Positions 3,552 through 59,962 of a DNA stretch of 64,000 bases are shown here, in pieces. The DNA is from Patescibacteria group bacterium (GTDB lineage: Bacteria; Patescibacteriota; Minisyncoccia; 2-02-FULL-40-12; GWA2-44-9): positions 32,585 through 96,584 of the forward strand of contig JBBTSY010000004.1 in NCBI GenBank assembly GCA_038064515.1, in the 5' to 3' direction. A program made the position numbers and the translations under genes. The number at the start of each line of letters is the position of its first letter. The stretch's first letter is position 1. The notes beneath the pieces were generated by a model that was not told where the DNA came from, made no database searches, and saw only the letters and a list, made by a program, of their open reading frames with translations.

Positions 3552-4154
3552 ATGAGGTATCAATTTTTATCTGTAGATCTACAAAATGACTTTGCTTCTG
3601 AAGGTGGCAGTCATTATAAAATCCGACCTTCTATAAACTTCGATAAAGAAGTTCTGTTTCCGTTTCTAAAAGAAAAGGATATTAAAGTCAGCGAGATAAT
3701 TTCCGATTATCGACAACCAAGACCAGGAGATAGGGATGAGAGTTGTGTGCCTGGCACTTGGGGTTATGAATCCATCGTCCCAAAAGAGGTTGTAAAGTCT
3801 CAATGGGTAAAATGCATGAACTCACCGATTTGGACTAGAGACAATATAGGCGATCCAAACAAAATTGCTGGCTTGCCTTACCAAGATACAAAAGGATTTG
3901 GAGAATGGCTGGAAGAGAATATTGGTAAACCAGAAGAAGTAACACCTGTATTATTCGGTCTTACTATTGATTGTTGCGTACTAAGCACCCTTCAGGAGCT
4001 TAGCTGGCGGGGTTATTATCCCTTGGTCTTGAAAGAAGCCGTGGATCATTATCGAGGTACCGAAGAAGCCAAAGAAGCTGTCTTAAAAACACCTATCAAT
4101 AACTGGGCGGATGCAATCACTTGGGACGAACTGAAAGATAAATTGAATGGATAA
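3552..4154 (+). CDS. Isochorismatase-family cysteine hydrolase, paralog A
   Basis: FLSVDLQNDF N-terminal motif and the catalytic-Cys motif GLTIDCCVLST. 200 aa. About 85% aa identical to the ORF at 6623-7225. Confidence 0.75.
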   Translation: MRYQFLSVDLQNDFASEGGSHYKIRPSINFDKEVLFPFLKEKDIKVSEIISDYRQPRPGDRDESCVPGTWGYESIVPKEVVKSQWVKCMNSPIWTRDNIGDPNKIAGLPYQDTKGFGEWLEENIGKPEEVTPVLFGLTIDCCVLSTLQELSWRGYYPLVLKEAVDHYRGTEEAKEAVLKTPINNWADAITWDELKDKLNG

Positions 4155-6622: not shown

Positions 6623-7225
6623 ATGAACTACCAATTTCTTTCAGTAGACCTACAAAATGATTTTGCTACTGAAGATGGTAAGCATTATAAAGTCCGACCC
6701 TCAATAAACTTTGATAAAGAAGTTCTTTTTCCGTTCCTCAAAGAAAAAAATATTAAGATTGGCGAGATAATTTCTGATTATCGCCAGCCTAGACCAGGAG
6801 ATAAAGATGAAAGTTGTGTCCCCGGAACATGGGGTTATGAATCAATCGTTCCGGAAGAGATTGTTAAATCTCAATGGATCAAATGCATGAATTCGCCGAT
6901 TTGGGTACGAGAAAATATCGGTGACCCAAATAAAACGGCAGGGTTGCCATATCAAGATACTAAAGCATTTGGGGAATGGCTGGATAAGAATTTAGGCAAA
7001 CCCGAAGAAATTACCCCAGTCCTTTTCGGCCTCACCATTGATTGCTGTGTGTTAAGCACACTCCAGGAGCTTAATTGGCGAGGATACTACCCGCTTGTAC
7101 TCAAAGAAGCAGTCGACCATTATCAGGGCACGGAAGAAGATAAGGAAGCAGTTTTGAAGACACCCGTTAATAATTGGGCGGAGGTAGTTGTTTGGGAAAA
7201 ATTGAAAAGTAAAATAAGGCAATAG
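6623..7225 (+). CDS. Isochorismatase-family cysteine hydrolase, paralog B
   Basis: Same motifs as paralog A. The DNA is about 80% identical with mostly synonymous differences, so both copies are intact and under selection. Confidence 0.75.
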   Translation: MNYQFLSVDLQNDFATEDGKHYKVRPSINFDKEVLFPFLKEKNIKIGEIISDYRQPRPGDKDESCVPGTWGYESIVPEEIVKSQWIKCMNSPIWVRENIGDPNKTAGLPYQDTKAFGEWLDKNLGKPEEITPVLFGLTIDCCVLSTLQELNWRGYYPLVLKEAVDHYQGTEEDKEAVLKTPVNNWAEVVVWEKLKSKIRQ

Positions 7226-11892: not shown

Positions 11893-12924
11893 ATGAAAAT
11901 CGGGGAAAATATATTTTTAGCCCCCTACACCACGTTTAAGATTGGCGGAAAGGCTAAATTTTTTATCGAAGCAAAGCACATAGACGACGTAAAGGATGGA
12001 ATTAAATTCGCGGAACAAAAAGGCCTGCCCTTTTTTATTTTAGGTGGCGGAAGTAATATTTTAATCTCCGACAAAGGTTTTTGCGGTCTTGTCATTCGGG
12101 TCAGTATCCGGGGAATTCAACGTGACAAAAATATTCTTCAGATTGGCGCCGGCCACAACTGGGATAATGTTGTCGCATATGCTGTCCGCGAGAATCTCTC
12201 GGGCATTGAGAACCTCTCACTTATTCCTGGGACTATAGGAGGAGCTGTGTTCCAGAATATCGGAGCATACGGCGCCGAACTGTCGGATGTTATCACGTCC
12301 GTTGTTGCGTTAAATACGACAACTGGAAAAATAGAGAAGCTTTCACATAAAGAGTGCCGTTTCGGATATCGCAAGAGTATTTTCCAGGAGCATTCCGGCG
12401 AGCTGGTCATTCTAAAGGCGATAATAAGACTGTCTCCAAAATTTAAACCCAATCTTTCATATCATGATATTAAAGAATATTTCCACAATCGGGCCGTTAC
12501 TCTTAGCACGATAAGGAAAGCTGTCATCAGTATTCGTCGAGCGAAATTGCCGTATCCCGACACAATAGCCAATGCGGGATCATTTTTTAAAAATCCGATT
12601 ATTTCCAATGCCCGAGGCATAACGCTGATAAAAAAGCATCCTGAATTGAAACAAAAGAAGGCGAAAGGCGGCATCAAACTTTCCGCCGGGCAACTCATCG
12701 AACTTACAAAATGGAAGGGCCGGCGTATAGACAATGTCGGGGTATCCGATAAACACTCACTGGTATTGGTAAATTATAATAATGGTACGGCTGAAGAAAT
12801 TGTAAACCTTGCCCGCAAGATTCAGAATAGCGTACTTAGGCGATTTAGTGTTCGCCTCGAACCGGAAGTCGTAATCCTAAATTACAAACCTAGCCGGATA
12901 GCCACTGGAACTGTTATTTTTTAG
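11893..12924 (+). CDS. murB: UDP-N-acetylenolpyruvoylglucosamine reductase
   Basis: FAD-binding N-terminal domain (FKIGGKAKFF, ILGGGSNIL). AGGAGG SD 8 nt upstream of the ATG at 11893. Confidence 0.85.
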   Translation: MKIGENIFLAPYTTFKIGGKAKFFIEAKHIDDVKDGIKFAEQKGLPFFILGGGSNILISDKGFCGLVIRVSIRGIQRDKNILQIGAGHNWDNVVAYAVRENLSGIENLSLIPGTIGGAVFQNIGAYGAELSDVITSVVALNTTTGKIEKLSHKECRFGYRKSIFQEHSGELVILKAIIRLSPKFKPNLSYHDIKEYFHNRAVTLSTIRKAVISIRRAKLPYPDTIANAGSFFKNPIISNARGITLIKKHPELKQKKAKGGIKLSAGQLIELTKWKGRRIDNVGVSDKHSLVLVNYNNGTAEEIVNLARKIQNSVLRRFSVRLEPEVVILNYKPSRIATGTVIF

Positions 12925-19889: not shown

Positions 19890-20129
19890 ATGTACTACCT
19901 GTATCTTCTTCAATGCAGTGACGGCAGTATCTACACCGGTATCACAACTGATATAAAACGAAGATTTACTGAACATAAAACCGGCGAAGGCGGCCGGTTC
20001 ACTCGATCTCGTAAAGTGACGAAAATTTTATATACTGAACGATTCGACAATCGTAGCCAGGCGCTCAAGCGCGAAGCGGAAGTTAAAAGCTGGCATCGAA
20101 CGAAGAAACTTAAATTGATTAATGCGTGA
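19890..20129 (+). CDS. GIY-YIG domain protein (UPF0213-type mini-nuclease)
   Basis: YYLYLLQCSDGSIYTGIT...RRFTEH. 79 aa. Confidence 0.7.
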   Translation: MYYLYLLQCSDGSIYTGITTDIKRRFTEHKTGEGGRFTRSRKVTKILYTERFDNRSQALKREAEVKSWHRTKKLKLINA

Positions 20130-21204
20130 GCTCCATAATCGCGAGCTCCAACGGCAGTTGAGGAATAGGAGAAATCTTCATGTCGTTGCGGACATTCGTG
20201 AATGCCGCCAGCATTTTTAAAAGATGCTGACTGTCAATTTCGCTCGCCAGATCAGCAAGCCTTTTTCCCGAATCACCGCTTGGTTCTTCGCCCATCGAAA
20301 CAAGTACCGCAGGACTTATTTTTTTTATCATTACTTTGCGGAGATATTCAAGGAATCCTTTCGTGAAATGCTCGAGATTATGCCCAGAATGATATATCTG
20401 TTGAACAAATCCAAGGGCCAGCGAGCGCTCGTTATGAATAAGATAGCCAAGGAAATCAGGATTCATATGCTCTGGAATCAAACCGAGTACCAGTGTCGCC
20501 TTAGCAATAGTAATTTGCTCTTTATCGCCAAACGAGGAGAGTAACTTTGATAGCGCCACTTCCGCGTCACGAAGCGCGCCATCCGACGAAGATGCGATAG
20601 AAGCAATGACAGTATCGTCCACGAATGCCTTCTCGGCTTTTACGATCATAGTGAGCTTCTCGGCAATTTCTTTGCTGGTGAGCTTTTTGAAATCAAACCG
20701 CTGTACGCGCGAAAGGACGGTAGGAAGAATTTTTTGAGGATCAGTAGTGGCTAATACCAGGACAACATGCGCTGGCGGCTCTTCCAGGATCTTCAGGAGC
20801 GCGTTGAATGCCTCTTTGGTGACCATGTGCGCCTCGTCAATGATGAAAACCTTATAACCGCCGCTAGCCGCCGCCACAGCGGCTGAATCTTTCAAATTGC
20901 GAATCTCGTCAATGCGGCCATTGGATGCGCCATCAATTTCAATAAGATCTAAAGAACGCCCTTCACTGATTGCAAGGCAACTCTCACATGTATTGTCCGG
21001 TTCGCCGGATTTTGCGCGATGCTTGCAATTAAGGGCTTTCGCCAGGATGCGCGCCAATGTTGTTTTTCCCGTCCCCCGCGGTCCGGAAAATAGATACGCA
21101 TGGCTTAAGCGCCCGCTCGAGAGAGCGCCCTTGAGTGTTTGAACAACGTGTTGCTGTCCAACTACTTCGTTAAATAATTGAGGTCGATACTTTCGATATA
21201 GCAT
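20119..21204 (-). CDS. dnaX: DNA polymerase III gamma/tau subunit, short form
   Basis: GPRGTGKTT Walker A, a Zn-Cys cluster, DEAH and the SRVQRFDF sensor. Confidence 0.85.
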   Translation of the reverse strand: MLYRKYRPQLFNEVVGQQHVVQTLKGALSSGRLSHAYLFSGPRGTGKTTLARILAKALNCKHRAKSGEPDNTCESCLAISEGRSLDLIEIDGASNGRIDEIRNLKDSAAVAAASGGYKVFIIDEAHMVTKEAFNALLKILEEPPAHVVLVLATTDPQKILPTVLSRVQRFDFKKLTSKEIAEKLTMIVKAEKAFVDDTVIASIASSSDGALRDAEVALSKLLSSFGDKEQITIAKATLVLGLIPEHMNPDFLGYLIHNERSLALGFVQQIYHSGHNLEHFTKGFLEYLRKVMIKKISPAVLVSMGEEPSGDSGKRLADLASEIDSQHLLKMLAAFTNVRNDMKISPIPQLPLELAIMELTH

Positions 21205-21314
21205 AGTTTCTAGTAACTAGCTTCATGCTCTTTTGCCAAACTACAAGACCACGATGGAATCTCACCATGTCCGTACCTTAATCTAAAAACTAGAAACTAT
21301 CAACTAGAAACTAT
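21203..21314. repeat. Array of the quasi-palindromic 12-mer ATAGTTTCTAGT: one copy at 21203-21214 and two reverse-complement copies at 21289-21300 and 21303-21314
   Basis: Exact 12/12 matches. One copy overlaps the dnaX start codon and another contains the gtrA-like stop codon. The same 12-mer occurs at 31086-31097, and a near-copy at 37724-37735. Confidence 0.6.
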
Positions 21315-21916
21315 CTCCTGAATACAAGCAACCTAAAACCTACAAAGTTGAAGATGAGGGCCACGGCGGAACCGGCGATGGCGGAAATGTTCGCCCATCG
21401 AACTGCTGAAAGCCCGAAATTATCCGTGCCCAATCTAAGAACAGCGGTAAATACGATTGTATTAATTACAAGACTCAACAGGTTTATGGTAAAGAACTTT
21501 CCAATCTCGGATGCCCCGGTCCTACCATTAGTTTGAAAAACCCATGTCTTATTCCAGAAGTAGCTATGCGTTGACGCCACTAAAAATGCCGCCGCCTTAA
21601 AGAACGATAATGTTGTGCCTCCGGTAATGCTGGAAATGGAGATGAGCAGATTCAAGGTACCAAAGTCGACAACGGCATTTGTAAAACCGATAGTTGCGAA
21701 TTTACCAAATTGATTAAAGAATGCCAGCCAGCGGCCCAGAAAATATCCGAACTGGACTCCAATCATCCATAAAACGGGAATAAATACCACAAGGCTTACC
21801 CAGGGAATACCGAACAGCGGCTCAATCTTTAAAAATAGCAAGATTTGCCACGCGATAAAACCGGCTGTTAATCCGGTAATAAGCGCGGAGATAATATCTT
21901 TACGTGTTATGGTCAT
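21311..21916 (-). CDS. GtrA-family membrane protein (polyprenyl-phosphate-sugar translocation family)
   Basis: 4 TM helices, KF..VG.N..D core and the FNFVGFRLLVFRR C-terminus. Confidence 0.65.
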   Translation of the reverse strand: MTITRKDIISALITGLTAGFIAWQILLFLKIEPLFGIPWVSLVVFIPVLWMIGVQFGYFLGRWLAFFNQFGKFATIGFTNAVVDFGTLNLLISISSITGGTTLSFFKAAAFLVASTHSYFWNKTWVFQTNGRTGASEIGKFFTINLLSLVINTIVFTAVLRLGTDNFGLSAVRWANISAIAGSAVALIFNFVGFRLLVFRR

Positions 21917-28973: not shown

Positions 28974-29834
28974 CTACCTAGGCTGGGTTAATGATGGAGT
29001 TTGTTCCAGTGTCGGCTCGGGTGACAACGTCGGTTGTTCTCCTTTATCAAAATATACCCGCCCATCAATGCGAAGATCAATGTATTTTTTGGGATGAAAA
29101 GAGGGATCTTTACTTTTTTCTTCAAGAAATATCTTAAGGACCTCGAGTTGCTTATCTACGTTTGAATCGAGAGCAAAGACAAGATAATAACCCGCGCCGG
29201 TGTGAACTCGAAATTCATTGATCAGGTCGCCTGGAATCTCAATGTTCTTCAGAGCAATACCAAGCTCTGGCAAACGCTTCGTAACGATCTGAATCGATTT
29301 GAAAAAATCCTGATCAAGTTTAAAGCTGGTATCTCGATAGTCATTCACTGCGGTGAGCAGCGCACCCGACGAAGGAATGGCTTTCCCCCACGTTACACCC
29401 TTATCATCAAAATAAGCGCATTCGTTCTGCCGACACCAAATACCAATGGGCACACGCTCCACCCCGCTGATTTCCAGCGTATGAAAGTAATTTTTCGCAA
29501 CACGAACCTTTTCGAGAGAAGGAAATTTTTGAGCAAGGTCCTGCTCCGCGTACACCGCATTGAACAGCAGGATATCACGATATGGTCGGAAGTTCCACTG
29601 TTCGGTATTGATCATTGATTGAACATGCGCGAGCACGTCGCTTTGCTTGATTCGCTGGAAATCTTGGACATAAATGTCTCGAATCATAAATACCGAAGAA
29701 AATAGAAATAGGTATATCGCACCGCTGAAGGCAAAAAGACCGAGCGCGGTGCCGGCAACATATTTCAGAGATACGGGACGCTTCTTATTAAAGCTCCCTT
29801 GGAAACGAACATTGGTAATTGGGCCCGGTCTCAT
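28974..29834 (-). CDS. Cell-division protein FtsQ/DivIB-like (POTRA domain)
   Basis: Single N-terminal TM helix and a POTRA-like region. It overlaps serS by 4 nt, and sits in a division/cell-wall gene context. Confidence 0.55.
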   Translation of the reverse strand: MRPGPITNVRFQGSFNKKRPVSLKYVAGTALGLFAFSGAIYLFLFSSVFMIRDIYVQDFQRIKQSDVLAHVQSMINTEQWNFRPYRDILLFNAVYAEQDLAQKFPSLEKVRVAKNYFHTLEISGVERVPIGIWCRQNECAYFDDKGVTWGKAIPSSGALLTAVNDYRDTSFKLDQDFFKSIQIVTKRLPELGIALKNIEIPGDLINEFRVHTGAGYYLVFALDSNVDKQLEVLKIFLEEKSKDPSFHPKKYIDLRIDGRVYFDKGEQPTLSPEPTLEQTPSLTQPR

Positions 29835-31081
29835 TTAATTTCCTTCAAGCCACCCATATAGGACTGGAGTACTTTAGGAATTTTGATTGTTCCTTCCTTC
29901 GTTTGATAGTTCTCGAGAATTGCAATAGGAAAACGGCTTGAGACAATAGCAGTGCCATTGAGCGTGTGAGCGAAGTTATTTACTCCTTCTTCCGTTTTAT
30001 ATCTTATATTCAACCGACGAGCCTGATAATCGGTGCAGTTGCTGGTGCTGGTAATTTCACCATAGCCGCCCTGATCGCTCTTCATAGTCATCCAGGCTTC
30101 AATATCAAACTTTCGGTATGCTGGGCCACCCAAGTCGCCACTGGCAACATCGATGACGCGATACGGAATATCCAAACCGTTAACAATTTCTTTTTCAATA
30201 TTTAAAAGTTCGTCATGCATTTTTTCGCTATCCTCTGGCTTACAAAACACAAACATTTCAAGCTTCGTAAACTGATGCACGCGGTAGAGACCCTTACTGG
30301 TTCGGCCCGCGGCGCCGACTTCAGTGCGAAAGCAATGCGACAGCGCAACGTACTTCTTGGGTCCTGCTGAAAAGTCGAGAATCTCATTTGCGTGATACCC
30401 ACCTACGGTAATTTCGGCAGTTCCGATGAGGCTTAGGTCGGAATTCTCGATAGAGTATACCTGCGATTCCGGGCCACGTGGATTAAATCCGATGCCAGAA
30501 AGAATCTCATTGCGTGCCATGTCGGGAGTTTCCAGTAAGGTAAAGCCGTGTTTGGTAACTATGTCGATGCCATACTGTATTAGTGCCCGACTCAAACGCA
30601 CCAAATTATTTTTTGCAAAATAGAACTTTGCGGCGGCGACCTTTGTACCCCGTTTAAAATCAATGAGATCCAGTTCTAATAAGAGCTGTTCGTGGTCTTT
30701 CGGTGCAAAATCAAACTTTGTTTCTTTGCCTTCTATAGCCAATACCTTGTAGTCATCTTCGCTACCGATCGGAACATCGGGATGAGTGAGGTTCGGAATC
30801 TTCAAAAGCAGTTCTTTAGTTTGTGCCTCTGTAGCTCCTAAATCATGTTCGAGTTCGATAATATGTTCGCCGACTTCCCGCATCCGCACAATATCCTCGT
30901 CCGACGGCTTTCCTTTTGATGTTTTATTGCGCAGTGCCCGCATCTCATCGAGCTTGGCGATATGGGAGCGACGCTTCTCGTCTAAATCAATAAGCTGATC
31001 GACATCAACATCCACGCCGCGGTTGCGGTTGTTCTTCTTTACTGTATCTGTATTCTCTCGAATAAATTTAATATCAAGCAT
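29831..31081 (-). CDS. serS: Seryl-tRNA synthetase
   Basis: N-terminal coiled coil and class II motifs (FRTEVG..., GTAIVSSR). Confidence 0.9.
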   Translation of the reverse strand: MLDIKFIRENTDTVKKNNRNRGVDVDVDQLIDLDEKRRSHIAKLDEMRALRNKTSKGKPSDEDIVRMREVGEHIIELEHDLGATEAQTKELLLKIPNLTHPDVPIGSEDDYKVLAIEGKETKFDFAPKDHEQLLLELDLIDFKRGTKVAAAKFYFAKNNLVRLSRALIQYGIDIVTKHGFTLLETPDMARNEILSGIGFNPRGPESQVYSIENSDLSLIGTAEITVGGYHANEILDFSAGPKKYVALSHCFRTEVGAAGRTSKGLYRVHQFTKLEMFVFCKPEDSEKMHDELLNIEKEIVNGLDIPYRVIDVASGDLGGPAYRKFDIEAWMTMKSDQGGYGEITSTSNCTDYQARRLNIRYKTEEGVNNFAHTLNGTAIVSSRFPIAILENYQTKEGTIKIPKVLQSYMGGLKEIK

Positions 31082-31106
31082 AAAAATAGTTTCTAGTTTT
31101 TAGTGG

Positions 31107-32570
31107 TTATCCCCGGGGCTTCATTGTCGGGAATAATAAGATTTCTCGCAATGAACGCGAATCGGTCAGAAGCGCGACAAGGCGATCGATGCCGATGCCG
31201 ATGCCTGCCGCCGGCGGCATACCGTGTTCCAGCGCTTCGATAAACTCTTCATCCAGCCGTTGGGCTTCTTCATTCCCTTTCTCGTGCATTTTTTCCTGAT
31301 TTTCGAATCGCTCCAATTGATCGATTGGATCATTAAGCTCGGAAAACGCATTGGCCATTTCCGTGCCGCCAACCAGTAATTGGAAGCGTGCCACGTTTTC
31401 TGATTCGGACGACAGCTTCTTTGATAGCGGCGAGAGATCGATGGGATGGTTGATAACGAATACCGGATCAATCATTTCATGACGCGCCAGTTTTTTGAAA
31501 ATTTCATCAGCGATGTTGCCTTTTGTCATCGCTTTATCAATCTGCATGCCGAGCTCTTGGGCTTTGCCGCGGAATGCCTCTTCGTCCGCATGTTCGTAAT
31601 CAAGACCGGAATACTTCTTCACGACATCGTTGAATTCCATCCGCGCAAACGGCTTTCGAAAATTGATTGTGTTGCCGTCATACTTGATTGAAGTTTGGCC
31701 ATACAGCTCCATAGTCAAAAATTCAAAAAGATTCTCGGTGAGCTTCATGAGCCATTCGTAATCCTGATATGCCGCATAAGCTTCAAGCATCGTGAATTCC
31801 GGATTGTGTTCCTTGTCCATGCCTTCATTTCGAAAGTTTTTGCCAATTTCGAATATTCGCTCAAGGCCGCCCACTAGCAGGCGTTTCAAATACAGCTCCG
31901 GCGCAACACGAAGGTAGAGATCAATATCCAGATCATTCATATGCGTTTTAAACGGGCGCGCAGTTGCGCCACCCGGCAGTGGTTGGAGTATCGGAGTTTC
32001 AACTTCGAGATAATTGTTCTCTTTGAAAAACTGGCGGACCAAATCGATAATTTTGAAGCGAAGAAGAAATTTCTCTTTTACTTCCGGATTAAAGATCAGG
32101 TCCAAGTAGCGCTTGCGGAAACGATCCTCCACATCCTGAAGGCCATGCCATTTCTCCGGCAATGGCAATAGAGCTTTCGTCAAGAGGCGATATTTTTCCA
32201 CCTGAAGCGTACGTTCAGATTTCTTGGTAAGAAAGAGGGAACCGGACACTTCAAGAAAGTCCCCGATATCAATCGTCTCAATAAAAAAATTATATTCGCG
32301 ATCACCGACGAGGTCTTTCTTAAAATATACTTGAACGGATCCGCTACCGTCATCAATATTAAGGAAAGTAGAACCGCCATGCCCGCGTACCGCCAATACG
32401 CGTCCCGCCAAGACAAGAAACTTCTTATCTGCCATGAGGCCTTCAAAATCCTCAAGAACATCACCAATAGTGTGAGTACGCCATGATTTTGCCGGATAAG
32501 GATCGATGCCGGCTTTCTTTAATTTTTCGAGCTTCTCAAGTCGGGCGACTAAGATTTCATCTAGTGGCAT
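31107..32570 (-). CDS. lysS: Lysyl-tRNA synthetase, class II
   Basis: OB-fold N-terminus and class II motifs. I place the start at MPLDEILVARLEK (32570), so that the greA terminator lies upstream rather than inside the gene. Confidence 0.85.
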   Translation of the reverse strand: MPLDEILVARLEKLEKLKKAGIDPYPAKSWRTHTIGDVLEDFEGLMADKKFLVLAGRVLAVRGHGGSTFLNIDDGSGSVQVYFKKDLVGDREYNFFIETIDIGDFLEVSGSLFLTKKSERTLQVEKYRLLTKALLPLPEKWHGLQDVEDRFRKRYLDLIFNPEVKEKFLLRFKIIDLVRQFFKENNYLEVETPILQPLPGGATARPFKTHMNDLDIDLYLRVAPELYLKRLLVGGLERIFEIGKNFRNEGMDKEHNPEFTMLEAYAAYQDYEWLMKLTENLFEFLTMELYGQTSIKYDGNTINFRKPFARMEFNDVVKKYSGLDYEHADEEAFRGKAQELGMQIDKAMTKGNIADEIFKKLARHEMIDPVFVINHPIDLSPLSKKLSSESENVARFQLLVGGTEMANAFSELNDPIDQLERFENQEKMHEKGNEEAQRLDEEFIEALEHGMPPAAGIGIGIDRLVALLTDSRSLREILLFPTMKPRG

Positions 32571-32611
32571 AATTACTACAGTATAGCGGTTAAAATATAA
32601 ATTACAACATG

Positions 32612-32640
32612 AAAAATGCCCCTTTCGAGGCACTTTTCTT
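32612..32640 (-). terminator. Terminator hairpin downstream of greA
   Basis: Minus-sense GUGCC-ucgaaagg-GGCAU followed by UUUUUC. Confidence 0.45.
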
Positions 32641-36547: not shown

Positions 36548-37597
36548 TTAAATATATCCTTCTTGCTGTGTCGAGAGAAGTATCGGTTTTAGTTCTTCTA
36601 AATGTTCCAAGATATATCCGCATCCGCGGGCAACAGCAGTAAGCGGATCGTCAACAATTTTAACACCCAGTTTTGTTTCATGGGCGATAAGCCGGTCAAG
36701 ACCTTTTAAAAGTGCTCCGCCGCCGGCTAGATAAATTTGGCGGTTAATGAGGTCTGCGGTTAGTTCAGGAGGTGTTTCTTCGATGGTATTCTTAACTGCC
36801 ATTACGATACTCTTGACAGAGCGTTGCATCGCATCGCGAATCTCTTCTGAAGTCACTGAAATTTGTTTGGGCAAACCAGAAACAAGATCTCGGCCCCGCA
36901 CTGTCCCTTCCAATTCTTCTTCCAGGGGATATGCGGAACCAAGCAGGATTTTTAGATTCTCCGCCGTCGCCTCGCCAATTAATAGATTACGCTCTTCCCG
37001 CAAATAGCGGAGAATATCTTCATTTAATTTGTCACCGGCAATGCGAAGTGAACGAGCAGCGATCGTGCCATTCATGGAGATAAGAGCAACTTCAGTGGTG
37101 CCGCCGCCTACTGCGACAATGACATTAGGCACGGCATCTTGAATCGGTAAGCGCGTACCGATAGCTGCCGCCATCGGCTCTTCAACAAGGTACACCTCTC
37201 GAGCGCCGGCATTGTACGTCGCATCTTCGACGGCTCTTTTTTCCACTTCTGTTACGCCCGATGGCACGCTGATTACTACGCGAGGCCGCGGTAAAATCGT
37301 AAATCCCCCCTTATGGACTTTATCTACGAAATATTTCAACATTTGTTCGGTCACCTCAAAGTCAGAAACAACGCCGGAGACTAAGGGTCGCGTTACAGTA
37401 ATATATCCCGGCGTCCTGCCAACCATGCGCCGGGCACCAGAACCAATATCAAGAATTTTGCCGGTTTTCTGGTTTATTGCAACGATGGAAGGTTCATTGA
37501 TGACGATACCTTTTCCGCGCACATAGACGAGAGTGTTGGCAGTCCCGAGATCAATTCCAATATCTTTTGACCAAATTCCGAAGAATCTATTGAGCAT
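36548..37597 (-). CDS. mreB: Actin-like rod-shape protein MreB
   Basis: DLGTANTLVYV phosphate-1 motif and VVAVGGGTTEVA. Confidence 0.9.
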   Translation of the reverse strand: MLNRFFGIWSKDIGIDLGTANTLVYVRGKGIVINEPSIVAINQKTGKILDIGSGARRMVGRTPGYITVTRPLVSGVVSDFEVTEQMLKYFVDKVHKGGFTILPRPRVVISVPSGVTEVEKRAVEDATYNAGAREVYLVEEPMAAAIGTRLPIQDAVPNVIVAVGGGTTEVALISMNGTIAARSLRIAGDKLNEDILRYLREERNLLIGEATAENLKILLGSAYPLEEELEGTVRGRDLVSGLPKQISVTSEEIRDAMQRSVKSIVMAVKNTIEETPPELTADLINRQIYLAGGGALLKGLDRLIAHETKLGVKIVDDPLTAVARGCGYILEHLEELKPILLSTQQEGYI

Positions 37598-37675
37598 AGT
37601 GGTAATATTTCTAGCACATACCTGCCTGCCGGTAGGCCGGTGGCTTCCCTACCTTAGCAGAATTAGTATCAACAA

Positions 37676-37705: not shown

Positions 37706-37730
37706 GATAAAATTAGAATAGATATAGGTT

Positions 37731-39173
37731 CTAGTAGCCTTGAGCAAACAACCAGCGGCGTTTTGCCGGACCGCCACAACCCACACAGGCGCCATCAATA
37801 GCCTCTTCCGTTCTTTCAAGCTCGAGCACCCGCGTACTGACTTTTGTCTCTTCCTTGATCTTGGCCTCACATTCAGCATCTTCACACCAAGGAGCACGAA
37901 TAAAGTAACGCTGTTTTTCCAAAGATTCTTTAAATAAATCGAGGCTGTCAACATTAATAGTTAGATTGTCGCGATTTTTTTTTGATTTCTCGAAGAGTTC
38001 ATTTTGGATAGCCTCAAGAAGCTCTGGAATTTTTGCTTCAAGCTCATCTAGAGGAATAAAGCCTTTTTCAAACGTATCTCGGCGGACAAATTTTACGGTA
38101 CCCTGTTCGATTTCTTTAGCGCCAACCTCCAATCGAACCGGCACACCCTTAAGCTCCCAGTTATTAATACGAAATCCGAGCGAATGTTCAGAATCGATAT
38201 CAACGGCTATTCGAACACCACGCTGTCTCAATTGATGAGATATCTTCATCGCATGATCTTTAACAGTCGCGTCGCCACCGACTATGAGAATAACAACCTG
38301 ATGCGGAGCTACGCGGGGCGGTACGATCAATCCAGAATCATCACCGTGACTAAGGATAAGACCTCCTATTGAGCGCGTAGACAAACCCCATGAGGTTTGA
38401 AAAGGATGCTCTTTTTTCCCTTCCTCATTCAAGAATTCGATATCAAAAACTTTTGCAAAATTATCACTGAGGTTATGGGATGTCGCGGCTTGAAGTGCTT
38501 TACCGTCAGGGATAACCATCTCAATTGAATAGGTTGTCTTTGCCCCGGCAAATTTTTCAGATTCGCTCTTAATACCTGCATAGACTGAAATCGCGAACTG
38601 CTCTTCATAAAATTTCTTATACCATTTAAGCGCCTTAAGCGTCATCTCAATAGCTTCTGCTTCCGTCTGGTGGACGGTATGACCTTCCTGCCATAAAAAT
38701 TCTGAAGTGCGCAAAAATGGATAGGTGCGCTTTTCCCAGCGCACAACATTCGCCCATTGATTGATCTTCAATGGCAAATCGCGATAGCTTTGAATCCAAT
38801 CGGAAAATGTTTTGTACATGATAGTCTCCGAGGTGGGACGAATCGCATACGGCTCGGCGAGTTCTTCGCCGCCAGCGTGCGTTACTATTGCAAGTTCAGG
38901 AGAAAATCCTTTGAGATGATCTTTCTCCTTTTGGAGATACGACATCGGGATTAGCAATGGGAAATAGGCGTTCTGCACGCCATCTTCCTTAAACCATTCA
39001 TCGAGAGTCTTTTGAACATGTTCCCAAATGGCATATCCATAAGGCCTAATGATCATCGATCCCTTTACCTCCGAATAGTTGGCTAATTCAGCCCGCAACA
39101 CTACATCGTGGTACCATTCCGAGATATTCTCTGATTTTTTAGTGAGTCCTTTTTTCTCGAATACCTGTGTCAT
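37731..39173 (-). CDS. proS: Prolyl-tRNA synthetase, archaeal/eukaryote-like type
   Basis: Class II catalytic core, an anticodon-binding domain and a C-terminal Zn-binding domain. 480 aa. Confidence 0.9.
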   Translation of the reverse strand: MTQVFEKKGLTKKSENISEWYHDVVLRAELANYSEVKGSMIIRPYGYAIWEHVQKTLDEWFKEDGVQNAYFPLLIPMSYLQKEKDHLKGFSPELAIVTHAGGEELAEPYAIRPTSETIMYKTFSDWIQSYRDLPLKINQWANVVRWEKRTYPFLRTSEFLWQEGHTVHQTEAEAIEMTLKALKWYKKFYEEQFAISVYAGIKSESEKFAGAKTTYSIEMVIPDGKALQAATSHNLSDNFAKVFDIEFLNEEGKKEHPFQTSWGLSTRSIGGLILSHGDDSGLIVPPRVAPHQVVILIVGGDATVKDHAMKISHQLRQRGVRIAVDIDSEHSLGFRINNWELKGVPVRLEVGAKEIEQGTVKFVRRDTFEKGFIPLDELEAKIPELLEAIQNELFEKSKKNRDNLTINVDSLDLFKESLEKQRYFIRAPWCEDAECEAKIKEETKVSTRVLELERTEEAIDGACVGCGGPAKRRWLFAQGY

Positions 39174-53975: not shown

Positions 53976-54254
53976 TTATTGATTCCACGGATGAGAGGGA
54001 TAATTACTTAAAAGCCATCCGTACCCCTCCCCTTTAGGAATTCTTACGCTGTTCAAACGCATCCAAGTATCCATGGCCAATCGCTGAGTCGGCGTAATTC
54101 TTTGTACCTGTGTATCTTGCGCAGTCTGAACTATGAGCTCTGAATCAAAGTTCTTCAATGAGATAAAAATCAATGAAACACAGAAACCAGTAAATAGAAA
54201 TATGAAGGCTCCTCCTATGTACGACTCGACTTGAAATGTCAGTGGATTTCTCAT
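53976..54254 (-). CDS. Hypothetical small membrane protein
   Basis: ORF only. Confidence 0.3.
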   Translation of the reverse strand: MRNPLTFQVESYIGGAFIFLFTGFCVSLIFISLKNFDSELIVQTAQDTQVQRITPTQRLAMDTWMRLNSVRIPKGEGYGWLLSNYPSHPWNQ

Positions 54255-54261
54255 GCGGTAA

Positions 54262-54741
54262 CTATCGAACCATTATCGTTCCCGTCTCGTTAATGTTTCT
54301 CTCATTATGATATCCGAAAATACCCTTCGTAGCAAAAGTGAAACCAAAAGTACTGCCCGGCTGGACGTCGCCAATGCTATCAAATCCTGCGACATTATTG
54401 TGCTCGGGATGAGGATCCGAAACTACATATATCGAAAAGAGGCCATCGTTGCGGAAACGAACCGTATCTCCCGCATGAATGCGAAGATTAGTCGGGCTAA
54501 ACACTCCTACCCGATATGATACGGTATACATGCGAGGCTGGCGGGATTCAGTCGGTGTAGGCGATTGCGAACTATCAGTCACGGCTTCGCCCGAACTGTT
54601 TTTTGAACCGAAAATGCTTACGGCAAAAGCCATCAAAATAAGAACAAGGATGATAAGAATCCAAAACGTACCGGTATCACTTAGAGTGTTTAATCGTTCT
54701 TCTTCCTTTCGAGCAAGTTGAGGAATATAATCCGGGTCCAT
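54262..54741 (-). CDS. Hypothetical membrane-anchored protein, possibly with a cupredoxin-like beta-sandwich
   Basis: TM anchor, an ST-rich linker and IHAGDTVRFRNDG...GYHNE. Confidence 0.3.
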   Translation of the reverse strand: MDPDYIPQLARKEEERLNTLSDTGTFWILIILVLILMAFAVSIFGSKNSSGEAVTDSSQSPTPTESRQPRMYTVSYRVGVFSPTNLRIHAGDTVRFRNDGLFSIYVVSDPHPEHNNVAGFDSIGDVQPGSTFGFTFATKGIFGYHNERNINETGTIMVR

Positions 54742-57613: not shown

Positions 57614-59611
57614 ATGTTCAAACTAGTTTCTCGCTATAAACCGGCCGGCGATCAGCCTGAAGCCATCGAAAAGCTCACGCAAGGGCTCAAGAAGGGCAAA
57701 AAGCATCAGGTGCTTTTGGGCGTCACCGGATCGGGAAAAACATTCACGATGGCTCACGTCATCGCTAACTATGAAAAACCGACACTCATCATCTCGCATA
57801 ATAAAACACTTGCCGCCCAGCTCTATCGCGAATTCAAAGAATTTTTCCCGCACAATGCCGTCCATTATTTTGTAAGCTACTATGATTACTACCAGCCGGA
57901 AGCATATATTCCCCACTCGCATACATATATCGAAAAAGATTCCAAAATCAACGAAGAGATTGATCGGCTTCGACACGCGGCGACGCAGGCATTGATGGCC
58001 CGTGACGATGTAATCATCGTCGCTTCAGTTTCCTGTATCTACAATCTCGGCTCTCCCGAAGATTATCGCGCCATGGGTTTGGAAATATTCGAAAAAAAGA
58101 AGATTACTTCTTCAGAACTGATCCGCAACCTTATCCGCCTGCAATATGCTCATGATATTGAATTGAAACGCGGAACATTCCGCAAAACCCGTGATGAACT
58201 GGAGATCGTAAATCCGAGCGGTGAAGAAATCATAAAAATCCGGTTCAAAAATGATGTTATCTACGGTATCAGCCGCGCAATCATCAAGAACGCAGAAGAG
58301 CTGGAGACGAGTATTCCCGCCTTCGAAAAAATTGTTGAAACCACTATCTTTCCGGCGAAATATTGGATAACTACCGATAATAAGATCGGCCTGGCCGTGG
58401 AAAATATCAAGAGCGAACTCCAGAAACGAGTTCAACAGCTTAAGAAACTCGGCAAGAGCGAAGAAGCCGCGCGTCTCCAGGAAAAAACACTCAACGACAT
58501 TCAGATGATGCGCCAAACCGGATACTGTCATGGAATTGAGAATTACTCGATGCACTTGGATTTCAGAAAACCAGGTGCGCCGCCGTTCAGCTTGCTCGAC
58601 TTCTTTAAAAGCAAGGGAGATTTTTTGACGATCGTCGACGAATCGCATATTTCAATTCCCCAGCTTCGCAGTATGCATAGTGGCGATTACTCGCGTAAAA
58701 AGACGCTCGTGGACTACGGATTTCGTTTGCCTTCCGCGATTGATAATCGCCCTTTAAAGTTTCCGGAATTCCAACAACGCGTCCGGAAAACCGTCTATGT
58801 TTCCGCCACTCCCGGAAAATATGAACTGGAGAAAGCGGGCAAGAATAATATTGCCGAGCAAGTCGTTCGTCCAACCGGGCTTCTTGATCCTACAATTGAA
58901 ATCTGTCCCACAAAAGATCAAATCCCTCATCTCATCGAAAATATCAAAAAACGAACATCAAAAGGAGATCGGGTTATTGTCACTACGCTTACGAAACGCA
59001 TGGCGGAAGATTTATGCGAGCACTTAGGCGATAAGGGTATCAAAGTAAACTACTTGCACTCGGAAATTAAAACTCTCGACCGATTGAAAATTCTCAAAGA
59101 CTTCCGCTTGGGCATTTACGACGTTATTGTGGGCGTGAATCTTTTAAGAGAGGGACTGGATCTGCCCGAGGTGTCGCTCATCGCCATTCTTGATGCCGAT
59201 AAAGAAGGGTTCCTTCGCAATACAACGACGCTCATTCAAACCATGGGCCGAGCGGCTCGCAATATTAATGGCCACGTGATTATGTACGCGAATAAGCTCA
59301 CAAAATCCATCGCTTCTGCCATCAGTGAGACTACGCGCCGCCGCAAAAAGCAGAATGCTCATAATAAAAAACATGAGATTGAGCCAACTTCAATCAAGCG
59401 TCATATTTCAAGCGTGGAAATATCAAATCCCAAAGTACTGAACGATAATCGGACTGGCGACAATAGTTCTAATATCACCTTCTCAAGCCCCCGCAAACAG
59501 GCCCAAATCACTCAACTTACTAAACTGATGGAAAAAGCGGCTTACAAACTTGATTATGAACAAGCGCTCATGATCCGCGAGCAGATCCAAAAGCTTAAGC
59601 ACAAAGAATAG
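57614..59611 (+). CDS. uvrB: Excinuclease ABC subunit B
   Basis: GVTGSGKTF, the beta-hairpin YYDYYQPEAY, helicase motifs and a UVR C-terminus. Confidence 0.95.
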   Translation: MFKLVSRYKPAGDQPEAIEKLTQGLKKGKKHQVLLGVTGSGKTFTMAHVIANYEKPTLIISHNKTLAAQLYREFKEFFPHNAVHYFVSYYDYYQPEAYIPHSHTYIEKDSKINEEIDRLRHAATQALMARDDVIIVASVSCIYNLGSPEDYRAMGLEIFEKKKITSSELIRNLIRLQYAHDIELKRGTFRKTRDELEIVNPSGEEIIKIRFKNDVIYGISRAIIKNAEELETSIPAFEKIVETTIFPAKYWITTDNKIGLAVENIKSELQKRVQQLKKLGKSEEAARLQEKTLNDIQMMRQTGYCHGIENYSMHLDFRKPGAPPFSLLDFFKSKGDFLTIVDESHISIPQLRSMHSGDYSRKKTLVDYGFRLPSAIDNRPLKFPEFQQRVRKTVYVSATPGKYELEKAGKNNIAEQVVRPTGLLDPTIEICPTKDQIPHLIENIKKRTSKGDRVIVTTLTKRMAEDLCEHLGDKGIKVNYLHSEIKTLDRLKILKDFRLGIYDVIVGVNLLREGLDLPEVSLIAILDADKEGFLRNTTTLIQTMGRAARNINGHVIMYANKLTKSIASAISETTRRRKKQNAHNKKHEIEPTSIKRHISSVEISNPKVLNDNRTGDNSSNITFSSPRKQAQITQLTKLMEKAAYKLDYEQALMIREQIQKLKHKE

Positions 59612-59698
59612 TTTCGAGGGCGTGTCTTGTGGTTTTTTAGAAATCATGATATGCTTTTCGAACTAAAAACTAATCATTATAAACTAGTAACTATCCAT

Positions 59699-59962
59699 AT
59701 GCCGAATACAAAATCAGCCATTAAGGCACTGCGACAATCAAGAAAACGACGAGTCAAAAATCTCGGCAAAAAAGACGCTTATAAGTCGGCCGTAAAGGAG
59801 TTTAAGAAATTACTTATTGCCGGCAAATTTGATGAAGCGAAACAGCTCTTGCCAAAGGTCTATCAAAAACTCGACAAAGCAACTAAGGCTAATGTTATCA
59901 AAAAGAACAAGGCCAGCCGCTTGAAATCAAAAGCCTCTAAAATGCTTGCCCGTCCAAAATAA
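59699..59962 (+). CDS. rpsT: 30S ribosomal protein S20
   Basis: MPNTKSAIKALRQS... The ORF track starts earlier, at 59627, but the S20 N-terminus begins at 59699. Confidence 0.85.
   Translation: MPNTKSAIKALRQSRKRRVKNLGKKDAYKSAVKEFKKLLIAGKFDEAKQLLPKVYQKLDKATKANVIKKNKASRLKSKASKMLARPK

Follow-up and report, generated by a model that had tools for sequence, protein, structure and literature searches.

The 12-nt sequence ATAGTTTCTAGT, which recurs at gene boundaries in a 64-kb stretch of a Patescibacteria genome (the window, to which all motif and array counts refer unless loci are named), is probably the decayed inverted end-arm repeat of a small, apparently mobile cassette that encodes a PF05635/TIGR02436 protein. 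On this interpretation, in which we place good confidence, a relic is more likely than a regulatory switch. The relationship is shown by homology to an intact cassette in a relative, by occupied and empty versions of the same sites, and by a geometry that extends across the family. We infer that the cassette is or was mobile, or is at least gained and lost as a unit.

Exact copies of ATAGTTTCTAGT are located at 21203-21214 (+ strand), 21289-21300 (-), 21303-21314 (-) and 31086-31097 (+), all within short intergenic spacers, and no copy appears in any of 100 dinucleotide-preserving shuffles. An earlier note on this DNA, made from its letters, had reported these same four copies and considered them non-random; both statements are borne out. 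If one mismatch is allowed, the number of sites rises to six (0.17 expected per window) through the addition of 37724-37735 (+) and 59683-59694 (-). The former completed the five sites counted by the earlier note, and its membership is doubtful; the latter had been missed. The placement at the dnaX ATG, the gtrA TAG, the serS ATG and the proS TAG is as had been described, although very short spacers account for part of the tendency of the motif to lie within 5 nt of a start or stop codon. Short-word BLAST of the spacer against the window reveals that the shared unit is longer than 12 nt: the 18-mer ATAGTTTCTAGTTTTTAG is identical at 21300..21283 and 31086..31103. In the same comparison, it is the arm sequence alone that recurs, and the cassette interior does not.

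The proposed quasi-palindromic 12-mer is a true repeat, but it is seen more accurately as a pair of units from an array with a 7-nt period, with the form TAGnnnn on one arm and nnnnCTA on the other. The unit sequences in the window are AAACTAG/AAACTAT. On the + strand, positions 21283-21317 read ACTAGAA ACTATCA ACTAGAA ACTATCT, the sequence at the dnaX start is CTAGTTA CTAGAAA CTATG, and that upstream of serS is CTAAAAA CTAGAAA CTATTTT. CTA at a period of 7 over three to five units occurs in three arrays, exactly at these three motif sites, compared with 0.66 in shuffles. A scan of the window for strict period-7 self-identity found nothing because the units are imperfect, whereas the CTA-based scan picked the arrays up. 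The array at dnaX reaches the ATG (0 nt), those at serS and rpsT each end 4 nt before theirs, and the stop codons of gtrA and uvrB fall inside the first heptad unit of their respective arrays. As a separate matter of composition, the tetranucleotide CTAG is strongly depleted in the window (67 observed, about 245 expected from base composition); 19 of the 67 fall in non-coding sequence, which makes up 9% of the window, an enrichment of approximately threefold.

The intact form of the cassette was found among dnaX neighbourhoods of relatives, gathered via protein search (L numbers designate loci of relatives, or PF05635-bearing metagenome loci, used for comparison). The closest genome match for the DnaX of the window is a Candidatus Yanofskybacteria metagenome-assembled genome, at 62% identity. 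In L087, whose DnaX is 80% identical, the gtrA-dnaX spacer is 417 nt long and contains an open reading frame (ORF) of 118 aa, which lies between ATAGTTTCTAGTtgATAGTTTATAGTTTTTAGA (left) and AAACTAGAAACTAAAAACTAGTCACTATAAACTAT (right). The left flank (...AGA TAG TTTCTAGTTGATAGTTTATAGTTTTTAGA...) begins on the gtrA stop codon, and the right flank (...AAACTAGAAACTAAAAACTAGTCACTATAAACTATCCAA ATG) ends at dnaX. The encoded protein matches PF05635 (E=3e-32) and TIGR02436, “four helix bundle protein” (114 bits, cutoff 24); its nearest solved structure is XCC0516, a Xanthomonas protein (PDB 2GSC, E=1e-20), and it also shows a weak match to the Pfam family bAvd (E=0.0016). This full-length cassette encodes the PF05635 protein alone, without a transposase, and its predicted RNA fold has a terminal stem of about 30 bp enclosing the ORF. 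The contig that carries it is dense in defence-type genes between 3643 and 11367, including SLFN/AlbA_2, an EcoRV endonuclease with a D12 methyltransferase, a DndB-like gene and HEPN_Swt1.

The corresponding spacer in the window is 106 nt long and lies on the - strand, between a gene for a GtrA-family membrane protein (21311-21916) and the short form of dnaX (20119-21204), both assigned by NCBIfam/Pfam. The left arm (21283..21314) is a 7-nt-periodic array that reads ATAGTTTCTAGT-TG-ATAGTTTCTAGT-TTTTAG on the - strand, and the GtrA-family gene terminates at the first TAG of this array (21313..21311). It is followed by the remnant of a PF05635 (S23p/four-helix-bundle) ORF (21215..21268), consisting of the first 18 codons, MVRFHRGLVVWQKSMKLV, up to a deletion junction. 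The right-arm remnant (21203..21223, AAGCTAGTTACTAGAAACTAT) closes the relic: read in the coding direction, the inverted copy (...ACTAGAAACTATG) ends in the AT of the dnaX ATG (21204..21202), an overlap of two bases. In an alignment of the spacer with L087, the match covers the gtrA end, the left arm and 45 nt from the start of the gene (81% identity over 117 nt); after a gap of 305 nt it picks up again within the right arm, at L087 2172-2190 (16 of 19 positions, 84%). A tblastn search of the window with the L087 protein recovers residues 1-18 at 21268..21215 with 72% identity, and the end-points of the deletion are short direct repeats, AACTAGTCA being present at both places in L087. By this alignment, the 106-nt dnaX leader derives from an L087-type cassette through the loss of 305 internal bases. 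Short contigs from the same strain that carry dnaX have a spacer identical to that of the window. At the other end of the gene, a stand-alone GIY-YIG domain gene of 79 aa (19890-20129, +) runs towards dnaX and shares 11 nt with its 3' end; this small gene also adjoins dnaX in L086 and is located elsewhere in L087.

The whole relic is predicted to fold into a rod-like hairpin (21199..21316, -), in which left and right arms pair to form the basal stem. The fold of the 106-nt spacer has an energy of -43.1 kcal/mol (z = -5.6), and none of 200 shuffles is as stable. The pairing across the dnaX leader noticed in the earlier note is thus real: the motif pair forms the basal stem, which encloses both the gtrA stop and the dnaX start.

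Relatives that lack the cassette at this junction have only 14-29 nt between gtrA and dnaX (L086, L088, L089/L090, L091/L092), and the Yanofskybacteria locus L001 has no spacer at all. The short spacers each open with GGTATAAC or CGTATATT, a -10-like box that in two of them lies at leaderless distance. The DnaX of L086 is 85% identical to that of the window and so is closer than L087, yet its spacer is the ancestral-looking GGTATAAC version common to L088 and L091, which argues for independent gain or exchange. The cassette also lies exactly between a GtrA-family gene and dnaX in the distant loci L096 and L104, where DnaX is about 55-57% identical. This deep recurrence may reflect either a preference for the site or ancient residence with losses.

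The other two junctions can be compared in the same manner. Between lysS (31107-32633, -) and serS (29831-31081, -), both assigned by NCBIfam/Pfam, the spacer is 25 nt in the window, mostly the 18-mer, and 1-2 nt in L086, L089 and L091. Most of it is a solo right-arm-type array (31083..31103, -; CTAAAAACTAGAAACTAT) that ends 4 nt before the serS ATG, with TTTT between the motif and the start codon. Between uvrB and rpsT (59699-59962, +), the window retains a decayed left arm (59608..59619, +; ATAGTTTCGAGG), whose TAG (59609-59611) is the uvrB stop codon, and a right arm (59661..59694, +; AACTAAAAACTAATCATTATAAACTAGTAACTAT) that ends 4 nt before the rpsT ATG. A better preserved version is found in L177 (UvrB 96% identical), in which the exact 12-mer on the uvrB TAG is followed by TAGTTGT TAGGTTT TAGTTTC, with the right arm before rpsT. 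The empty counterpart is L179 (UvrB 88% identical, same assembly as L086): its uvrB-rpsT spacer is 39 nt long and carries a TTGCCA-17-TAATAT promoter and no array. The relative GCA_034680565.1, with proteins 85-88% identical, lacks the motif at all three junctions and has ordinary promoters and spacers of 2-39 nt. Homology of the centre of the uvrB-rpsT spacer to the ancestral promoter spacer of L179 was considered and rejected, the alignment being no better than shuffles. In L180, from the same sample as L087, the left array on the uvrB stop is followed by an unrelated GC-rich segment of about 300 nt (12040-12330), which lies before the rpsT promoter, has no called gene and gives no Rfam match at E<=0.01. 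The first codons of uvrB itself (57614-57640, +) begin with ATGTTCAAACTAGTTTCTCGC, which holds the palindrome AAACTAGTTT and the motif core TAGTTTCT; this copy of the core is within the gene, 9 nt from its start.

A scan of metagenomes with the L087 protein yielded 80 loci from many lineages, and flank statistics could be drawn from 55-65 of them. The flanking arrays consist of 7-nt, occasionally 8-nt, units whose sequence depends on the lineage (for example TAGTTTC, AGCGTCT, CTTATAG, CCTAAAA/CCTATCA, CCACTGA and CTTTTCA). With at least 15 of 21 self-matches taken as a period-7 array, arrays are present in the upstream flank of 37 of 65 loci and in the downstream flank of 46 of 65, compared with 0 of 65 for period 6. 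At least one flanking array accompanies 45 of 55 PF05635 loci, against 58 of 2645 windows (2%) elsewhere in the same loci, a difference of about 40-fold. In 48 of 65 loci, the upstream array is an inverted match to the downstream one to a degree that no shuffle reaches. Where a long ORF lies upstream, it ends in the TAG that opens the left array in 18 of 23 cases (33% background, p ~9e-6), and the PF05635 gene points the same way as its neighbours in 72 of 82 cases, compared with 63 of 90 adjacent baseline pairs. The final codons of the protein and its stop are usually inside the right array. By eye, and unscored, this array often reaches within a few nucleotides of the next ATG, and in several lineages the junction is CT|ATG, as at dnaX in the window; the distance and register of array to ATG vary, from 0 to 10 nt or more. 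Closure of all three reading frames by stop codons within the arrays was rejected as a rule, since it is enriched only 2-3-fold over shuffles in about 45% of loci, and is suggestive.

These observations can be joined into a probable history. The cassette settles between co-directional genes; its left array opens with the TAG at which the upstream gene terminates, and its right array nears or, in some cases, overlaps the downstream ATG. Two circumstances would place the motif on gene boundaries: it forms the outer edge of an element that entered spacers of, at first, only 1-39 nt, and the stop and start codons are either contained in the arms or adjoin them. The copies in this genome have decayed. 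Of the gtrA-dnaX copy, a 106-nt hairpin relic with 18 codons of the gene is left after the loss of 305 nt between short direct repeats (AACTAGT); both arms persist around a short centre at uvrB-rpsT, and the right arm alone at lysS-serS. The 7-nt period may allow a TAG-containing unit to close successive reading frames. Upon co-transcription with the neighbours, the arms may, as in rRNA intervening sequences, form a long stem, which RNase III would probably cut, freeing a downstream message with little or no leader. The insertion appears to have displaced the ancestral dnaX promoter: a promoter scan of the dnaX spacer found no sigma-70-like promoter, and dnaX is therefore probably read from the gtrA transcript. 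If left uncleaved and unmelted, the stem of the relic would occlude the dnaX AUG, whereas a near-leaderless dnaX message produced by the cut would suit an organism whose starts look mostly leaderless. From the stop/start geometry and the same rRNA analogy, a role in RNA processing or in translational coupling or hand-over, as the earlier note had also suggested, is possible. With regard to gene starts in general, almost none in the window (for example at 1237, 2366, 19311, 24991, 43062 and 48950) has a Shine-Dalgarno sequence. By eye, a TAnAAT-like box, frequently of the form TGnTAnAAT, lies 6-10 nt ahead of the ATG in many of them, a pattern suggesting that most mRNAs of this Patescibacteria genome are leaderless. 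Spacers in the window are, moreover, very short.

Other explanations of the motif differ in which part of this evidence they accommodate. Chance coincidence of an AT-rich 12-mer in non-coding DNA could produce a lone one-mismatch copy such as the one at proS, given the 0.17 such matches expected per window. For the exact copies it is refuted by their number against the 100 shuffles, and the 18-nt identity between the dnaX and serS sites and the homology to a cassette in relatives also oppose it, so that as a general account it has practically no weight. The 106-nt spacer might instead be an independent structured RNA (a small RNA, attenuator or riboswitch) that controls dnaX, as its very stable hairpin around the dnaX AUG would lead one to expect. 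However, its stability is explained by the inverted arms of the cassette, its interior is truncated coding sequence, and the spacer is missing in most relatives, including the closest distinct species; nor was any lineage seen among the loci compared that had never held the cassette and conserved the hairpin with compensatory changes. Known RNAs upstream of dnaX, such as the signal recognition particle RNA, were rejected: at gathering level Rfam gives a single match in the window, a tRNA elsewhere (no rRNA was found), and at permissive thresholds the best match in the gtrA-dnaX spacer has E = 8.4. An independent RNA is thus extremely improbable. The earlier note had also proposed an operator, and a transcription factor that co-regulates dnaX, serS, proS and rpsT would account for a sequence that recurs near several housekeeping gene starts, in tandem and inverted copies resembling repressor-site arrays. 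Against this, the motif is not conserved at the orthologous junctions of close relatives, its absence from all three in the 85-88% relative being accompanied by ordinary promoters, and two copies are placed where the upstream gene ends and point away from any promoter. No sigma-70-like promoter was found in the dnaX spacer, arrays of unrelated heptad sequence show this geometry in many lineages, and the regulator gene that the note advised looking for was found beside none of the copies among the annotated neighbouring ORFs. An operator is therefore very unlikely. Its further suggestion of a termination signal finds no match in 21100-21400, where no intrinsic terminator (GC-rich hairpin and T-run) was detected. 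TAGAAA as a -10 box for leaderless starts was rejected as well: it fits serS and rpsT (8-nt gap) but not dnaX, and the distance to the ATG varies family-wide.

A different kind of alternative takes the heptad arrays as the primary functional cis-elements at starts and stops, for example as sites for a translational regulator or ribosomal protein S1. The PF05635 genes would then merely sit among the arrays or use them as landing pads, and the copies at serS, rpsT and dnaX would be working leader elements rather than relics. In its favour, serS and rpsT each have a solo array with no gene remnant, 4 nt ahead of the ATG; the 58 control windows show that arrays in the fetched loci are not confined to the vicinity of PF05635 genes; and TAACTGA heptamer arrays in other bacteria sit near start codons, for which a post-transcriptional regulator has been proposed (PMC4679880). 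The arrays are, however, missing from the same essential genes in the 85-88% relative, which has plain promoters and spacers of 1-39 nt, and the distance and register to the ATG vary from 0 to 10 nt or more. The association with PF05635 is about 40-fold above background, and the dnaX copy demonstrably descends from a cassette. Each part of this alternative, the arrays as primary elements, the genes as guests among them and the window copies as working leaders, is accordingly judged unlikely, though with a real share of the probability.

The interpretation as cassette relics has its own difficulties. No target-site duplication is visible when occupied and empty junctions are compared, and the ancestral spacer looks replaced rather than split. 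In L096 and L104, long vertical residence and repeated loss are as possible as repeated insertion. The window contains no intact PF05635 gene, as judged by tblastn and by Pfam searches of the small ORFs tested. The serS site shows no recognisable remnant of the gene and the rpsT site at most about two codons, so the link of these two sites to the cassette is drawn from the identity of the arm sequence and the empty sites in relatives. Mismatches between arms comprise 58 G.U and 76 A.C pairs; there is no excess of G.U, selection on the arms at the RNA level is not supported by these counts, and the complementarity of the arms could be a property of the DNA. Finally, in some loci, for example L110, L115 and L117, the arrays are direct and not inverted. 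All of these points weigh against the relic interpretation.

Among known systems, the closest resemblance is to the intervening sequences of 23S rRNA in Leptospira and Coxiella burnetii, which are small elements whose sole ORF encodes a PF05635 four-helix-bundle protein, like that of the intact cassette in L087. In Coxiella, a 28-bp terminal stem around the S23p ORF is cut by RNase III, and such sequences are sporadic among relatives, with short versions that lack the ORF (PMC4990558). The cassettes share the terminal inverted repeats that form a long stem (28 bp in Coxiella, about 30 bp in L087), the sporadic distribution and the short ORF-less versions. By contrast, they lie between protein-coding genes and not in helix 9, 25 or 45, their arms are 7-nt arrays that take over the stop and start codons of the neighbours, and their arm mismatches show no RNA-specific bias; excision by RNase III would be an extension from the rRNA case. 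PF05635 ORFs are also present in rRNA insertions of candidate phyla radiation bacteria (bioRxiv 10.1101/2024.02.27.582315), and have been reported between cas genes in cyanobacteria.

The arms themselves resemble intergenic heptanucleotide repeats. TAACTGA arrays in Beggiatoaceae, cyanobacteria and Bacteroidetes mostly lie a few nucleotides upstream of starts, a minority being reversed after stops (PMC4679880), and heptamer repeats are also known in Xanthomonas (GGGAATC) and Nostoc (GGGGA(C/T)T) (PMC4692102). Together with the short tandemly repeated repetitive (STRR) sequences of Calothrix, these share the 7-nt period, the intergenic location, forward arrays ending near starts, reverse arrays just past stops and indels in 7-nt steps. 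They differ in the unit, which here is AAACTAG/AAACTAT, and in that the arrays described here bracket PF05635 genes (45 of 55 loci), of which PMC4679880 and PMC4692102 make no mention. No literature that links heptamer repeats to PF05635 genes was found in the searchable library, which is no proof that the link is unpublished. In size and form, the dnaX relic is similar to miniature inverted-repeat transposable elements such as Correia elements and RUP: about 110 nt, hairpin-forming, non-coding, bounded by inverted repeats and situated between genes as an internal-deletion derivative. However, its parent cassette has no known transposase, no target-site duplication is seen, and only the arms, not the interior, recur within the 64 kb.

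The cassette protein is also homologous to Avd of diversity-generating retroelements (DGRs), as reflected in its weak bAvd match; Avd and 2GSC belong to the same pentameric four-helix-bundle family (PMC10053308). The difference is that neither a reverse transcriptase nor template/variable repeats lie beside the cassette. A true DGR-type pair is present as a separate locus in the relative whose UvrB is 96% identical (L178 3370-4742; L177 3371-4246). It lies between SPP-like and Mur-ligase genes and consists of a reverse transcriptase (RVT_1, 291 aa) and a bAvd protein (144 aa; NF033474 E=1e-16, below its cutoff). The window counterpart of this locus holds two small ORFs only (53976-54741).

Locally, an apparent regulatory motif becomes an explained relic, and dnaX, serS and rpsT are not tied by a common operator. 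This local finding is of modest interest; the general rule is worth following up. It is possible, although this can be proposed only tentatively, that PF05635 genes with inverted heptad arrays constitute a widespread, unrecognised class of mobile cassettes that seek gene boundaries. If so, the left array would bring a TAG, often with stops in all three frames, at which the upstream gene would then terminate; the downstream ATG would come with the right array; and the paired arms would let the insert be cut out of the RNA. The rRNA intervening sequences would be the special case of a cassette that landed in rRNA, and the heptamer repeats of cyanobacteria, Xanthomonas, Beggiatoaceae and Bacteroidetes would represent the footprints or landing pads of such cassettes, which an Avd-like protein might bind or make. 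This would join the S23p ORF of the rRNA intervening sequences, the stand-alone “four helix bundle protein” genes and the start-codon-hugging heptamer repeats, which are treated separately in the searchable papers. The rule is testable: a TAG-first left array, a right array close to an ATG and sense orientation within gene strings. A cassette both mobile and processed from RNA would explain harmless residence in the operons and rRNA genes of very compact genomes, and would give the Avd-like family a second context besides retroelements.

The proS-mreB junction holds the remaining candidate copy. Both genes are on the - strand and assigned by NCBIfam/Pfam (proS 37731-39173, mreB 36548-37597). 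The near-copy at 37724..37735 (-; ACTAGAACCTAT, one mismatch) lies on the proS stop codon, the TAG at 37733..37731 being inside it, and its ACTAG consists of a conserved Tyr codon (TAC) and the stop. Relatives have TAC TAA at this point, where the window has TAC TAG AACCTAT. The remainder of the spacer is a conserved terminator and promoter, and its fold is unremarkable (z = 0.19). Membership of this copy in the arrays is unproven, and it may have originated by chance. Further downstream, about 49 extra bases separate a conserved -10-like box (TAAGGT) from the mreB ATG (37598-37650, -) and include a GC-rich inverted repeat (GGGAAGCCACCGGCCTACCGGCAGGC); in L174, TAAGGTTGGGT runs directly into the mreB ATG, without the extra bases.

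Elsewhere in the window, two ORFs of 200 aa (3552-4154 and 6623-7225, +) lie 2.5 kb apart and share the same weak C-terminal match to an isochorismatase domain; they are possibly paralogues.

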